A DNA stretch of 64,000 bases from Dehalococcoidia bacterium (GCA_030610855.1 JAUWQY010000006.1:153-64152); one strand, 5' to 3'; numbered from the stretch's first letter, positions 10,056 through 60,695 are shown. The notes: generated by a model from the sequence alone, not told the origin. Program-made: numbers and translations.

Positions 10056-10226
10056 CCCCTATCATTATACCACCGCGGACTACCCCACCTAAATCACAGC
10101 CTCGACCCTAATTCCACAGGAAGTCCCACTACGTTAATGGAAAGGGGCCAACAACCCAGTTTGTGGTGCGAGTTCTCAGGGTTACGTCCCATCCCCTGGC
10201 TTCCCCACCAGAGAGGAAAACCTACG

Positions 10227-11126
10227 TTATCTGCTGATAAACGTGTTTATAATCCCTTCAAAAGGTGATAGGCTCCCATGAAGTTGGTCGATTTCCTCTG
10301 GACTCAATACTGTGAGGGCGTTAGCTATCTCGGCAAACGCTCCACTAGAAAGAAGCTCCCCTGCTTTATTCTGGTCTTCTGATGTGGTTACGACGAGGAA
10401 GAGGAGAGGATGGCCCATAGTATGGTATCCGTGCAGCAGTTTGGCTAGTGCACTCTCTAGAGTGCCCTTGTGTTGAACTTCGAAGACATGACTTACTCCC
10501 TGTACCCGTTGAGAGCTTTTCCACACGACATCATAAATGTAGAAGCCTTTGCGGTACTCTCCTTTAGCATATCTTCCTAGAATCTTACCGATTTCCTTAA
10601 TTTTTCTCTGAATCTCTTCATGTGTGTAGGTTTGCTCGTCTCTCACTACCGTTGGTTTTCCAACTCCCTTATACCCCAGCTCCGCTGCCAGCTCTCTGTA
10701 AGAAAGAGTCTCCGCCTTGTTCCAGAGTGCCTCGTTGAGTTCACCTCTTCGCCCCTTTGTTACTAGTAAACACAGCTTTGAAATGCCAATCTTAATCAAA
10801 CGGTCTTTTGGGGGCGCTATGGGAGTGGTCGACAATCGGTAAATATTCATGAGGCGTGTCGCCCAAGAGTAGGAGTTGTTGAAGGGTAAGCTGTATTGCA
10901 CATATTCCATGAAGTTCCCGTAACCGAGAACCCGCCAATAACGCCCTTCAGAGCATTCGGTTAGTAGTCTTCCGATTTGTAGAAAATCGTGCATCACTTC
11001 CGCAACAAGTCGGATTGTCTCTTCACGGTTCCGACGCGCTTGCTCACGGATGTCTGCTTGCGGAACTATCTGCATAGACTGAAGCCTACAGGTATACCTT
11101 GTATTGCTCAATGTAAAGTATACCAC
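10227..11126 (-). CDS. Hypothetical protein with a C-terminal PD-(D/E)xK nuclease-fold motif, in a low-GC islet. Probable start is the internal Met at 11078.
   Basis: GFYIYDVVW...VFEVQHKG supplies Asp and E-x-K on adjacent predicted strands, followed by LLFLVVTTSED. The N-terminal half is helical and HTH-like. Local GC is ~47%, against ~57% in the neighbours. It is a single gene inserted between the radical SAM gene and an ABC substrate-binding-protein gene. Confidence 0.5.
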   Translation of the reverse strand: MVYFTLSNTRYTCRLQSMQIVPQADIREQARRNREETIRLVAEVMHDFLQIGRLLTECSEGRYWRVLGYGNFMEYVQYSLPFNNSYSWATRLMNIYRLSTTPIAPPKDRLIKIGISKLCLLVTKGRRGELNEALWNKAETLSYRELAAELGYKGVGKPTVVRDEQTYTHEEIQRKIKEIGKILGRYAKGEYRKGFYIYDVVWKSSQRVQGVSHVFEVQHKGTLESALAKLLHGYHTMGHPLLFLVVTTSEDQNKAGELLSSGAFAEIANALTVLSPEEIDQLHGSLSPFEGIINTFISR

Positions 11127-11288
11127 AAACGACCCATTCTGGCTCTCGCAACCTTGTCTGGGTTCCGTGAGGCGGGCTGTTTAGTATCTTCCCCTAGGCC
11201 TATCACGCCCAATAATCACGATAACGTTCGTAGGGCAGCATTTTATGTGCCTCCATCTCCGGCGGGGAATAAATCCCCGCCCCCCAAG

Positions 11289-12887
11289 CTAGGGCTGTTC
11301 CACGTAAACCTGGCTCAGGTTGGGAATACCCAGTAGACCAAGCTCATAGCCTGTAACATAGGGTCTGACCAGGATGTAGTTTGCGCCGTGCCACAGAGGC
11401 AGGCAAGGAGCCTCATCAACCACCATTTGCTCAGCCTGCCGGTACATAGTCAGGCGGGCGGTATTATCCTGTTCTATGGCCGCCTGGTAAAGCAAAGCAT
11501 CCAAGTCGGGGTTGCTGTATTCAAAGGCATTGTTCTCGCTTCCGGTAAGAAAGAGGATATCCAGGAAATTGTGCGGGTCCGGGTAATCGGCTATCCAGCC
11601 CAGCACAAACATCTCATCCTTCTCTTGCTTCAGGTTGTAGACAAAATTCTCTGGTTCCAGTTGCCTGACCGAGACTTCCACGCCGAGGTTTTGCTGCCAT
11701 TCCTCGATAATCGCGCCCAGGTAGTCGGGAATGTAATTGCCATAGCCGGCAACAGTCAAGGTGATAGGAGGCAAGTTCGAGGCTTCACCATACCGTGAGG
11801 CGGCGATGAGTTCTTTCGCCTTTTCCACATCGTAGTCCAGTCCCTCGAGACCCTCGTCATAGCCAGGCATACCCGGTGGCAAAATCCCCCTGGCCTCATT
11901 CGCCATGTCACTCAATACCAGTTTGGCGATGCGCTCTCTATCAACAGCATGAGAAAAGGCCCGCCGAACATTAACGTCGTCGAAAGGAGGTTCGGCAGTA
12001 TTAAAGCCAACATAATAAAGGCTGAGCTCAGACGTTACGGCTAACTCCGCGTAGAACGGGCTGGTCTCGTCACGCACCCGGTGAATATAACCCCCGTATA
12101 CCGGAACGACGTCGATGTACCCCAGTTCATACATGGGCATAGGCGGACCGGCAAGATAATAGACGACGTGCTCCACTTCGGCCGGATCGCCGTAGTAGGT
12201 TTCGTTACGCTCCAGAATCAACCACTCGCCGGCCTGCCATTCCTTTAGCTTAAACGGCCCCGTTCCGTCTGGTTCGCACCACCAGTCTGTCCGGACCTCC
12301 GCATTGGCTCTGTCAACAACAAAAGCAGTAGGATAAGCCAGCTTGCTCAGGAAATAAGCCCTGGGAGCATCAATGGTGACACGAAGAGTGTAATCATCGA
12401 TTACTTCGACCCCGGAGATCTCTCCCGTTTTTCCCGCCAGCATATCGCTGGCGCCAATGATATCTCCCAGATAGGTAGCCGCCGTGCCAGAGCCAGTATC
12501 CGGGTGGCAGGCTCGCTCCCAGGAGTATTTGAAGTCGGCGGCTTTCACTTCTCTGCCGCTATGAAATTTCACTCCCTGGCGCAGGTAGAAGGTATACGTT
12601 CTGCCGTCAGGGCTTTTCTCCCAGCTCTCAGCGATATCGGGTACTGTCCTCAGCTCATGGTCCAGACGAACCAGGCCGGAGAAGATATGCACGACATAGG
12701 TATAGGAAGAGAAGTCGGCAGCAATCGCCGGGTCGAGCGTTATGGGGCCCGCGTCCCAGAGACGAAGGACGCTGTCTCCGCTGCCCAAAGGAGGACAGCC
12801 CGCCAACGAAAGCAGAAAGAAGGCGAGAACAAGTGAGAGCAATACTATGTGCCGATTTCTTCTTCTACAGAAACAACTTGACTTCAT
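11289..12887 (-). CDS. ABC transporter substrate-binding lipoprotein, family 5 (peptide/nickel/oligopeptide).
   Basis: Lipobox LLSLAGC; length 532 aa; SBP_bac_5-like sequence throughout. Confidence 0.85.
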   Translation of the reverse strand: MKSSCFCRRRNRHIVLLSLVLAFFLLSLAGCPPLGSGDSVLRLWDAGPITLDPAIAADFSSYTYVVHIFSGLVRLDHELRTVPDIAESWEKSPDGRTYTFYLRQGVKFHSGREVKAADFKYSWERACHPDTGSGTAATYLGDIIGASDMLAGKTGEISGVEVIDDYTLRVTIDAPRAYFLSKLAYPTAFVVDRANAEVRTDWWCEPDGTGPFKLKEWQAGEWLILERNETYYGDPAEVEHVVYYLAGPPMPMYELGYIDVVPVYGGYIHRVRDETSPFYAELAVTSELSLYYVGFNTAEPPFDDVNVRRAFSHAVDRERIAKLVLSDMANEARGILPPGMPGYDEGLEGLDYDVEKAKELIAASRYGEASNLPPITLTVAGYGNYIPDYLGAIIEEWQQNLGVEVSVRQLEPENFVYNLKQEKDEMFVLGWIADYPDPHNFLDILFLTGSENNAFEYSNPDLDALLYQAAIEQDNTARLTMYRQAEQMVVDEAPCLPLWHGANYILVRPYVTGYELGLLGIPNLSQVYVEQP

Positions 12888-19790: not shown

Positions 19791-20261
19791 ATGGCAGAAG
19801 GCGTAGCAGTACTGTTCTCTAGTTCATGGATTTGGTTGGTATTTGTAGTTCTTGGTCTGCTGCTGATTCTGCTGGAGCTCATCATTGGCGTAGAGACCGG
19901 GTTTGACCTGGTATTCCTCGGGTCTGCATTCATACTCGGGGGACTGGTGACCTGGCCAGCTCATTCCTGGATTCTAACACTAATTATAACCAGTGTAATC
20001 TGTACAGCCTACATTTTTATCGGCAGGAGATATGTTCACAGGTGGGCTGCCGTACGAAAATCAAAAACCAACGTTGATGCCATCGTCGGCAGGACAGGAA
20101 TCGTTCTGCAGAGTATATCCAGAAATCTTGATGGTCGTGTTAAAGTTGGAAATGAAGACTGGAAGGCAAGAGCAACAGAGGATATTGAAGAGGGTATTGA
20201 GATAGTTGTCACGGGCGTTAGTGGCGCTACGCTAATTGTAGAAAAAACTAAGGGAGGGTAG
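19791..20261 (+). CDS. NfeD-family membrane protein (short form, partner of SPFH/stomatin).
   Basis: N-terminal TM helices plus a C-terminal OB-like beta domain. It is translationally coupled (stop overlaps start) with the SPFH gene. Confidence 0.75.
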   Translation: MAEGVAVLFSSSWIWLVFVVLGLLLILLELIIGVETGFDLVFLGSAFILGGLVTWPAHSWILTLIITSVICTAYIFIGRRYVHRWAAVRKSKTNVDAIVGRTGIVLQSISRNLDGRVKVGNEDWKARATEDIEEGIEIVVTGVSGATLIVEKTKGG

Positions 20262-21166
20262 TGAAAATGAACGTAGGCGTAATAGTTGTCCTCAGCGTGC
20301 TGGCAGTGGTAGCACTGATAGCTCTTAGCAGGTCTATAACCATCATCCATCAAGCAGAGAAAGGCCTCGTGGAGAGATTTGGTCGATATAAGGAGACACT
20401 CGTACCGGGGCTCAGATTTCTTGTGCCTTTTATGGATTCCCTGAGAGCTAGAATCGATATGCGGGAGACCGTCCTGGATGTGGAACCTCAGGCGGTTATC
20501 ACCAAAGATAATGTCGGCGTAACCGTAGATGCCGTGGTTTACTACTACGTGACAGATGCCAAGGCTGTCTGCTATGAGGTCTCCAACTTCTTCGTTGCAA
20601 TAAGCAAGCTAGCACAGACGAACTTGAGAAACATGATCGGTGACATGACCCTCGATGACACACTGGCATCAAGAGAACGTATCAATACTGCTCTGCGGGA
20701 AACCCTCGATGAAGCCACTGACAAGTGGGGAGTAAAGGTAACCAGGGTAGAGGTTAAGGAAATCCTGCCACCCAGGGACATCACTGATGCCATGAGCAAG
20801 CAAATGAAAGCGGAGAGAGAGAAGCGCGCGACTATCCTGGAAGCGGAAGCATACCGACAAAAACAAATTCTCACGGCTGACGGCGATAAACAGAATGCAA
20901 TACTTATAGCTGAGGGTGACAAGCAGGCTGCAATATTGAGGGCGGAAGGGGAAGCAAAGGCTATAGAGAATGTCTCAAAGGCGGCCGATGAGTTCTTTGT
21001 AGGAAATGCTCAGTTGCTGAAACAACTTCAAGTTACTCAGGCATCTCTAGAAGATAATACAAAGCTTGTCATCTCCGACCAATCAAGGTTGATTAATGTC
21101 CTCGGTCTTGCTGAAGCGCTGGCCGGAACAAAGTCAAAACCTCAAACCCAATCAAAATCATCGTAA
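20261..21166 (+). CDS. SPFH/Band-7 (stomatin/prohibitin-like) protein.
   Basis: N-terminal TM segment followed by an SPFH domain (IIHQAEKGLVERFGRY..TKDNVGVTVDAVVYYYV) and a coiled-coil tail. Confidence 0.9.
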   Translation: MKMNVGVIVVLSVLAVVALIALSRSITIIHQAEKGLVERFGRYKETLVPGLRFLVPFMDSLRARIDMRETVLDVEPQAVITKDNVGVTVDAVVYYYVTDAKAVCYEVSNFFVAISKLAQTNLRNMIGDMTLDDTLASRERINTALRETLDEATDKWGVKVTRVEVKEILPPRDITDAMSKQMKAEREKRATILEAEAYRQKQILTADGDKQNAILIAEGDKQAAILRAEGEAKAIENVSKAADEFFVGNAQLLKQLQVTQASLEDNTKLVISDQSRLINVLGLAEALAGTKSKPQTQSKSS

Positions 21167-59852: not shown

Positions 59853-60695
59853 ATGGATAAACAAATTGAGGAAAAAATCTGTGTCGAGCGTTTCTTGAAT
59901 TGGTATAACAAACGGCAGAACAGAGACTATACTTATGAGAAAGCAACGGTTCACTTCCCTTGCCTGAAGAACAAGTTGAACTGGGACTTTGTGGTTTACG
60001 AGCGTGATAATCCACAAGAGTGGATTGGAATTGAGGTGAAAGAACTACACAGTTTAAGAAAGACCTCTATAAGCCTTGAATTGTGGCGGCGTTTGTGCTC
60101 AGATTTGACGAAGGATTTGCCAGGCAAGGGAATTCAGGGAGAATTCGAGATTAGCTTTCCACCAGTCTTGCGTTTACGACAAAAAGAGAGCCAAACACTA
60201 CTGGATGCCTTTGGCCAAGTCTTGATTGATAAACAATCAGGCTGGAGGGTAGGCGAAACAAAAGATATTGGCCCTGATGTCAGGAGTAAATTTCCCAACT
60301 GGCCTAAAGGCAAAAGTGATGTGGACGAATATGAGAAATGGCGAACGTATCGTCCATGTAAGTTAGAGATTAAAAAGGTTTCAGATTTAGGATGTAAGGT
60401 AAGTGTGGTCACTAGCCCGTTGATCATTGGTGACGTGGTACAAGAGGACAAAAAAGCTTTCAATGAAGTGTTTAAGCTGAAGAATAGTGTTATACAGGCA
60501 GACAGGCAGCTTGAACTGGCCAAAGAAAAGGAAGCAAGGAAGACCATCCTTTTACTAGCTGGTATCGGTGTCGATGAAGGTCTCACAGAGAATTCTGTAC
60601 AGAATTTAGACCATGACCTTATTTCTCATATCGATTGCATTTACCTTGTTGATATGGGTAATGGGGATAGCGTAGTCAAACTGTATGCTAGTTAG
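59853..60695 (+). CDS. Hypothetical protein with an N-terminal PD-(D/E)xK nuclease-fold motif, located in a low-GC island.
   Basis: NWDFVVYERDNPQEWIGIEVKEL supplies Asp and E-x-K on adjacent strands. Local GC is ~42% across 59760-61060. Lys-rich and AT-rich codon usage is atypical for this window. Confidence 0.5.
   Translation: MDKQIEEKICVERFLNWYNKRQNRDYTYEKATVHFPCLKNKLNWDFVVYERDNPQEWIGIEVKELHSLRKTSISLELWRRLCSDLTKDLPGKGIQGEFEISFPPVLRLRQKESQTLLDAFGQVLIDKQSGWRVGETKDIGPDVRSKFPNWPKGKSDVDEYEKWRTYRPCKLEIKKVSDLGCKVSVVTSPLIIGDVVQEDKKAFNEVFKLKNSVIQADRQLELAKEKEARKTILLLAGIGVDEGLTENSVQNLDHDLISHIDCIYLVDMGNGDSVVKLYAS

Follow-up and report, generated by a model that had tools for sequence, protein, structure and literature searches.

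A solitary, horizontally acquired gene in a Dehalococcoidia bacterium encodes a candidate two-domain endonuclease of the PD-(D/E)xK fold

We analysed a stretch of 64,000 nucleotides from a Dehalococcoidia bacterium (GCA_030610855.1 JAUWQY010000006.1:153-64152), referred to below as the window, in which a single gene of lowered GC content lies on the (-) strand within positions 10227 to 11126. About 1.1 kb of DNA carrying this one gene was very probably gained horizontally in the lineage of the window, between two conserved housekeeping genes. Structural models indicate that the C-terminal ~130 amino acids of the encoded protein in all likelihood adopt the PD-(D/E)xK nuclease fold, and they give the N-terminal part a helical fold of a type seen in phage proteins. 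The reading that we favour, and hold with about even confidence, is that the protein is a solitary two-domain endonuclease, acquired horizontally, which would most likely defend the cell against foreign DNA as Type IV restriction enzymes do. The class of modular orphan restriction-like nucleases is known already; what is new here is a family of cleavage domains that lacks a model, and the combination of such a domain with a phage domain of uncharacterized structure.

The gene is flanked on one side by the gene for the AmmeMemoRadiSam radical SAM protein (TIGR04337, 282 bits against a cut-off of 220), beyond which lie genes for AmmeMemoRadiSam protein A and then RarA/MgsA. On its other flank is a gene for an OppA/DppA-like family-5 substrate-binding protein (SBP). 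These are the neighbours named in a preliminary description of this DNA, which had proposed an acquired islet of a single gene. One genome per species was sampled for comparison, giving 80 loci from Dehalococcoidia and Chloroflexota metagenome-assembled genomes that carry an orthologous radical SAM gene at 67-96% identity, and the DNA within 10 kb on either side of each relative's locus was inspected. Relatives of the gene were found at 0 of these 80 loci. The spacer between the SBP and radical SAM genes is free of open reading frames (ORFs) and measures 49-496 bp in the 31 relatives with the same gene order, compared with 1,233 bp in the window. The flanking genes are about 130 bp apart in the closest relative (L011), in which the radical SAM protein is 96% and the SBP 95% identical. 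Local alignment shows homology up to position 11299 on the SBP side and again from 10130 on the radical SAM side, such that about 1,168 bp of the window stand in the place of 57 bp of L011. It is this comparison with relatives that is decisive for the acquisition, and it bears out the earlier proposal, the gene being absent from the corresponding loci of relatives and not conserved there at native GC content. The inserted DNA is as follows.

10131..11288, (-) strand: inserted segment, ~1.16 kb at most, from the SBP stop codon to where homology with L011 resumes

Because the spacer varies among relatives, the boundaries of the insert are not settable to the base. Replacement of the 3′ end of the SBP gene by the insertion was considered and is ruled out; the C-terminus of the SBP in the window is native and resembles those of other relatives. 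In seven distant Dehalococcoidia (L043, L045, L060, L062, L069, L081 and L089) the spacer holds a gene on the opposite strand for a P-loop protein of ~200 amino acids, dephospho-CoA kinase-like by eye; gene content at this site thus varies within the lineage. No integrase, transposase, tRNA, Rfam element, target-site duplication or conserved terminal repeats were found at the insertion. The only candidate for terminal inverted repeats was a 20-nt pair with 70% complementarity (10153-10172 / 11145-11164), which was rejected and is not shared with L091, the locus of a homolog of the gene.

Over 10227-11126 the GC content is 46.8%, the whole window having 52.1% (900-bp windows: standard deviation (SD) 2.8 points, z = -1.9), and 3.4% of the 900-bp windows are equally low. 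The gene has 47% GC compared with ~54% in its neighbours, and its GC content at third codon positions (GC3) is 0.48, the third lowest in the window (mean 0.578, SD 0.055, 50 ORFs), with values of 0.61-0.63 in three adjacent genes. The drop is real and, as had been claimed, limited to one gene, yet it is modest, and composition alone is not exceptional. Lower values than that of the gene occur elsewhere in the window, at 59853-60695 (41.9%) and at 19791-20261. Positions 19791-21166 on the (+) strand carry two adjoining low-GC genes (46.5% and 48.0%), by eye encoding an NfeD-type membrane protein and an SPFH/band-7 protein; as this is an ordinary gene pair, a GC content near 47% is not peculiar to the acquired gene.

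The ORF at 10227..11126 on the (-) strand is present and would encode 299 amino acids if read from a GTG codon, but that GTG falls within a conserved -10-like box. The ATG at 11075 is the start used in databases and by all homologs, and yields a protein of 282 amino acids. In a comparison with the 73%-identical homolog at L091, the ratio of nonsynonymous to synonymous substitution rates (dN/dS) is 0.21 with a dS of 0.72, from which it follows that this is a real gene under purifying selection. It has no paralogs in the window, and public databases hold no name for the protein or for the relatives that share its full architecture, which we call window-type. The coding sequence and its parts are arranged as follows.

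10227..11075, (-) strand: coding sequence, 282 amino acids plus stop; ATG at 11075, stop codon at 10227-10229; every full-length homolog aligns with it from residue 1
10671..11075, (-) strand: N-terminal helical domain (residues 1-135) with a modelled phage-type fold (AlphaFold (AF2), Foldseek), presumed to be targeting or DNA-associated
10626..10670, (-) strand: inter-domain linker (residues 136-150), poorly conserved, variable and gapped in alignments
10230..10625, (-) strand: C-terminal domain (residues 151-282) with a predicted PD-(D/E)xK fold (AF2 model, Foldseek, conservation)
10473..10532, (-) strand: computed codons of the putative catalytic residues D182 (10530-10532), E199 (10479-10481) and Q201 (10473-10475)

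The full-length AF2 model, built with 17 homologs, gives residues 150-280 a predicted local distance difference test (pLDDT) score of 82-93. They form a helix, three strands, helix, strand, helix, strand and helix, with an alpha-beta-beta-beta-alpha-beta core (by AF2 topology, helices H and strands E: H152-165, E169-176, E179-186, E194-201, H206-219, E224-229). Every Foldseek match in the PDB with a probability of at least 0.8 is a PD-(D/E)xK nuclease. Matches include VC1899 (1xmx; E 1.1e-3, probability 0.99), Can2, EndoMS/NucS (5gke), EcoT38I, BstEII, YaeQ and MUS81. Poor modelling of the N-terminus in the full-length prediction keeps the whole-chain TM scores low. The preliminary description had assigned a nuclease fold to the C-terminus, and the predicted structure agrees, the credible PDB matches (best E only ~1e-3) all being of this fold. 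The YDVVW and EVQHK motifs on which that assignment drew are both present, with 13 residues between them instead of the 19 reported; the lysine of EVQHK is not conserved.

Conservation in the C-terminal domain is concentrated in H152, E161, E173, D182, W185, K186, H196, E199 and, with variation, Q201. Across 42 diverse C-terminal domains, three residues never vary (D182, W185 and L213) and three more hardly do (H152, E173 and E199). D182 lies on predicted strand 2, and E199 and Q201 lie on predicted strand 3. The position of the canonical lysine is taken by Q201 and varies among Q, E, H and C in relatives, and K/R186, which follows the conserved aspartate, might substitute for it. Two well-known Type IIP enzymes with cognate methyltransferases, BglII and BamHI, have the PD-(D/E)xK active-site variants D...ExQ and D...ExE, respectively. 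The D182 ... E199-V-Q201 arrangement resembles these in having Q (E in some relatives) at the lysine position, but no sequence relationship or specific fold relationship to either enzyme was detected, and they do not explain the invariant H152 and H196.

The missing canonical lysine and the variability of its position could mean that the nuclease fold is catalytically dead and has been reused in a DNA-binding or regulatory protein, a role for which a palindrome over the gene's own -10 box might also speak. We regard this as very unlikely: the acidic residues and the histidines show little or no variation across hundreds of diverged sequences, ExQ and ExE variants are active in known enzymes, and the palindrome is not conserved in seven other members of the family.

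The C-terminal domain resembles the nuclease cores of the CARF proteins Card1-Can2 and of NucS/EndoMS in fold (1xmx, 8q3z and 5gke; probability 0.98-0.99), but identity is 8-19%, and the protein has neither a CARF nor a NucS N-terminal domain and no CRISPR context. An accessory role in DNA repair, or a structure-specific nuclease of the NucS/EndoMS, MutH or resolvase kind, would be in keeping with the Foldseek matches to EndoMS/NucS (5gke: 119 columns, root mean square deviation 4.0, 19% identity; 2vld) and MUS81. A gene for a relative in which the nuclease domain is fused to Mrr_N is located 9 bp upstream of a full-length mutS gene on the same strand (L134 and L135, 7677-10993; E 1e-173 to solved MutS), which may reflect a link to mismatch repair or coincidence and represents one genomic arrangement only. 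A repair gene should be conserved, yet this gene is absent from 80 of 80 relatives, the mutS adjacency comes from that single arrangement, and the domains with which relatives are fused are readers of modified DNA. A function in repair is thus most unlikely.

More telling than any other result are the domain partners of relatives. A profile search of 1.84 billion representative sequences yielded 737 relatives of the C-terminal domain at 50% clustering, 230 of them at E <=1e-10. Among 83 relatives, the domain found ahead of it is Mrr_N in 20, EVE in 12, DUF1802 in three, McrB_N in two, SAP in two, and HARE-HTH and DUF5655 in one each. EVE is a reader of modified bases (PMC7641849), and modification-dependent restriction enzymes are known to be built as fusions of a reader to a nuclease (PMC6765204, PMC11037411). 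Because relatives fuse the C-terminal domain to Mrr_N, EVE, McrB_N, HARE-HTH and SAP readers, it is reasonable to regard it as a putative cleavage module of Type IV-like restriction enzymes.

For the same reason, the suggestion in the preliminary description of an orphan restriction or Mrr-like nuclease is sound as regards restriction or defence; the attribution to Mrr is not upheld by sequence. Neither the protein nor the 83 relatives match Mrr_cat (PF04471), and hhalign against E. coli Mrr gives a probability of 0.4%. Homology of the C-terminal domain to McrC was likewise rejected (hhalign probability <1%). The Mrr_N winged helix (PF14338) is absent from the window protein according to Pfam and present in 20 of the 83 sisters with the same C-terminal domain. 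NmeDI_C (PF27126) appears only as 'faint' precomputed matches on two homologs of 71-73% identity; the enzyme R.NmeDI belongs to Type II and cleaves DNA on both flanks of RCCGGY (PMC2095814). The literature on NmeDI domains and on DUF3102, a family of phage and plasmid proteins considered below, held nothing informative.

Five sister loci in which the nuclease domain is fused to Mrr_N lie beside methyltransferase-like genes (L120 209-3805, L127 3700-7284, L122 706-5979, L129 730-4635 and L009 5889-8699). The neighbours there comprise a gene for a 955-amino-acid NPPF/DPACGSG protein located 13-31 bp downstream, DPPF and DEAH genes, two SPPY genes and a D12 methyltransferase gene, the methyltransferase motifs having been read by eye or by regular expression and not by family scans.

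The N-terminal half was correctly described as helical, but the helix-turn-helix (HTH) ascribed to it is not demonstrable, there being no Pfam match and no PDB fold match; a phage-type fold is predicted instead. An AF2 model of the domain based on a 38-sequence alignment has a pLDDT of 88.2 and a predicted TM score (pTM) of 0.75, and is all-helical with a first helix of 38 residues. The linker that follows has a pLDDT of <50 at residues 137-147 of the full-length model. No relative of the domain in sequence or in fold was found in the PDB (Foldseek best E 1.9, probability 0.08). In BFVD, Foldseek finds uncharacterized Caudovirales proteins with TM scores relative to the query (TMq) of 0.59-0.70 and a probability of 1.0, and three proteins named DUF3102 at a TMq of 0.48-0.56. 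The family phrog_17202, whose function is not assigned, is matched by 10 of 24 relatives of the N-terminal domain (best E 6.6e-11), and a PHROGs search with the whole protein returned only a weak match to it. Membership in DUF3102 (PF11300) was considered, but Pfam matches one of the 38 N-domain sequences (E = 0.041) and not the query, and we do not file the domain there.

Residues 1-140 also occur as an independent module, either alone in proteins of 150-180 amino acids or preceded by a small N-terminal domain with an acidic linker, and the stand-alone proteins usually end in a CPRCG zinc ribbon. The model of our domain superposes on phage proteins, better on unnamed Caudovirales proteins than on those named DUF3102, and differs from the DUF3102 and phrog_17202 proteins in what follows, as the phage versions end in the zinc ribbon and the window protein in a nuclease; neither family has an assigned function or a solved structure. 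N-domain-only proteins are encoded on 12 IMG/VR contigs. On two unrelated contigs of this collection (L097 8001-11458 and L094 7356-11105), a gene for the domain with its zinc ribbon is located 1-2 kb upstream of genes for a replication initiator (O-like/DnaD-like) and a DnaC-like helicase loader, and in L097 an HNH endonuclease gene directly follows the N-domain-only gene. For the C-terminal domain or the full architecture on viral DNA, tblastn gave no match in 50,697 phage records and none was confirmed among the 2.9 million viral contigs of IMG/VR.

The phage fold of the N-terminal domain (BFVD, phrog_17202 and the 12 IMG/VR loci, including those upstream of an initiator and a DnaC-like loader), together with the foreign composition of the gene, would suit a gene stranded from a phage or other mobile element as a moron or remnant, whose native role would be in the DNA metabolism of the element, as a replication-linked or recombination nuclease, or in superinfection exclusion. 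Such an origin is nevertheless improbable, since neither the full architecture nor the C-terminal domain turned up on viral contigs or in the genomes of cultured phages, the window and eight other contexts show no further phage genes beside the gene, and purifying selection in cellular genomes speaks against a decaying remnant.

We considered the genomic neighbourhoods of the window-type family in eight distinct contexts, namely the window and seven others, some of the full-length members having been added by a metagenome scan. The members are solitary and reside at different loci in different genomes. The 73%-identical homolog (L091) is located beside a gene for an iron-type alcohol dehydrogenase, and a 47%-identical homolog (L003) between gyrB and gltX. 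Neighbouring genes in general are housekeeping genes or small unannotated genes, those for ClpP and a DedA/VTT protein being examples, and no methyltransferase, integrase, transposase, recombinase or second defence gene is identifiable among the neighbours in the eight contexts. The GC content of family members is 45-50% regardless of the composition of the host. At L003 (8666-9526), the homolog has 47.9% GC inside a contig of 61.5% GC, a far stronger compositional islet than that of the window.

This scatter over different loci, and the precise single-gene insert with a putative promoter of its own between conserved genes, in the absence of integrase, transposase, terminal repeats or tRNA, are also features to be expected of a selfish, free-standing endonuclease of the homing type, which would cut the empty spacer and be copied in by repair with no gain to the host. 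The HNH gene adjoining the N-domain-only homolog on phage contig L097 fits with this as well. Homing predicts recurrence at the same site, yet none of the 80 relatives carries the gene here and the closest homologs are found at other loci. Furthermore, the dS and dN/dS values argue for long-term selection on the protein, the C-terminal family is otherwise tied to readers of modified DNA and adjacent methyltransferases and not to homing contexts, and the full gene has no confirmed match among the 2.9 million viral contigs. Pfam and PHROG searches gave no match to the homing nuclease families (LAGLIDADG, GIY-YIG, HNH, His-Cys box and PD-(D/E)xK of the I-Ssp6803I type), and a PD-(D/E)xK fold is compatible with homing without being specific to it. 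On balance we consider a homing endonuclease unlikely.

In general, these results are most consistent with the reading that the protein is a solitary endonuclease acting against foreign DNA. The C-terminal domain would be the metal-dependent cleavage module, in which D182 and E199 would bind metal and Q201 or K186 would replace the canonical lysine, in the way of the ExQ and ExE variants BglII and BamHI. Target recognition would be supplied by the N-terminal helical domain, whose long first helix may mediate dimerisation. As there is no methyltransferase partner, the host DNA would need to be spared by other means, either because the enzyme recognises a feature found only in the invader, such as a modification, a structure or a sequence, or because it is activated only on infection. 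Fusions of a reader to a nuclease that stand alone, with no methyltransferase close by, are expected to depend on modification, as they would otherwise be toxic (PMC11037411, PMC6765204).

The closest known parallels to such an enzyme are the modular Type IV enzymes, including Mrr, the PUA/EVE-PD-(D/E)XK proteins and the winged-helix-nuclease proteins (PMC6765204, PMC11037411). Like them, the protein combines N-terminal targeting and a C-terminal PD-(D/E)xK domain in a single predicted chain, stands alone with no cognate methyltransferase and is horizontally mobile, and in relatives the same C-terminal domain is fused to their readers. The differences are that the cleavage domain is not Mrr_cat and that the N-terminal domain is none of the known readers and is instead helical and of phage type.

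Several results weigh against a defensive endonuclease. Searches of Pfam (E up to 10), NCBIfam, PADLOC and the PDB, the last by sequence and by profile, gave no link to a known nuclease family, and PADLOC-DB 2.0 does not recognise the protein, returning only HORMA (E = 0.044, 11.5 bits). The Foldseek E-values are marginal, from 1e-3 to 0.1, and the canonical (D/E)xK lysine is absent. No modified-base pocket or HTH is demonstrable in the N-terminal domain, which matched no known reader. The gene lies outside any defence island, and no recurrent partner gene of the window-type family was found, although many neighbours are unannotated and a partner could be missed among them.

A different mode of targeting can also be envisaged, in which a restriction-type module captured a domain from the early or replication region of a phage and homes on phage origins or replication proteins, reading no base modification. 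We consider this doubtful at best. If true, the enzyme would cut only where a phage replisome assembles, which would give solitary nucleases of the restriction type a new targeting logic, with a 'stolen phage domain as sensor'.

The non-coding DNA around the gene holds three features.

11100..11129, (-) strand: extended, conserved -10-like box (TTTGTGGTATACT; TATACT at 11117-11122) with the beginning of the leader, from local alignment with L091
11091..11124, no strand assigned: 16-nt imperfect palindrome (GGTATACCTTGTATTG / CAATGTAAAGTATACC, 2-nt spacer) overlapping the -10 box and leader
10145..10157, (-) strand: weak terminator-like hairpin, from a consensus scan and as a pattern match only; a 5-bp stem with 3 GC pairs, followed by CTTTCCATTA

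DNA homology with L091 ends with the stop codon on one side and ~55 nt ahead of the ATG on the other, and the only non-coding DNA common to the window and L091 is this stretch of ~55 nt with TTTGTGGTATACT and the leader. Alignment of window positions 11129-11100 with L091 1349-1378 scores 17.5, compared with a shuffle maximum of 12. A consensus sigma-70 scan found no full -35/-10 promoter; the -10-like box would probably serve as the gene's own promoter. A similar GGTGGTATAAT box occurs at the neighbouring radical SAM gene and is conserved in L011. The palindrome was considered as an autoregulatory operator and rejected, being absent upstream of the seven other family members and unique in the window, with an ordinary RNA fold (z = -0.7). 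The terminator-like hairpin is located ~70 nt past the stop codon, within the inserted segment.

Elsewhere in the window, the ORF with the lowest GC content (59853-60695, (+) strand; 280 amino acids, 41.9% GC, GC3 0.44) carries near its N-terminus the sequence 'NWDFVVYERDNPQEWIGIEVKE', a canonical D...E-V-K nuclease-like motif. It has no sequence match in the PDB and no similarity to the protein studied here, and could represent another, unrelated nuclease-like gene that is solitary and low in GC.

If the endonuclease reading is right, two unannotated building blocks are defined. The first would be a widespread cleavage domain of the PD-(D/E)xK fold, with no model in the copy of Pfam used, that serves as an exchangeable effector placed after Mrr_N, EVE, McrB_N and HARE-HTH domains and whose family might be a source of new modification-dependent enzymes. 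The second would be a confidently folding helical domain common to phage replication-region proteins and a cellular nuclease. Given that modular orphan nucleases are common, the finding is incremental and not surprising. It does provide a clean natural case of the gain of a single gene by uncultured Dehalococcoidia, whose genomes are streamlined and whose defences are little known.

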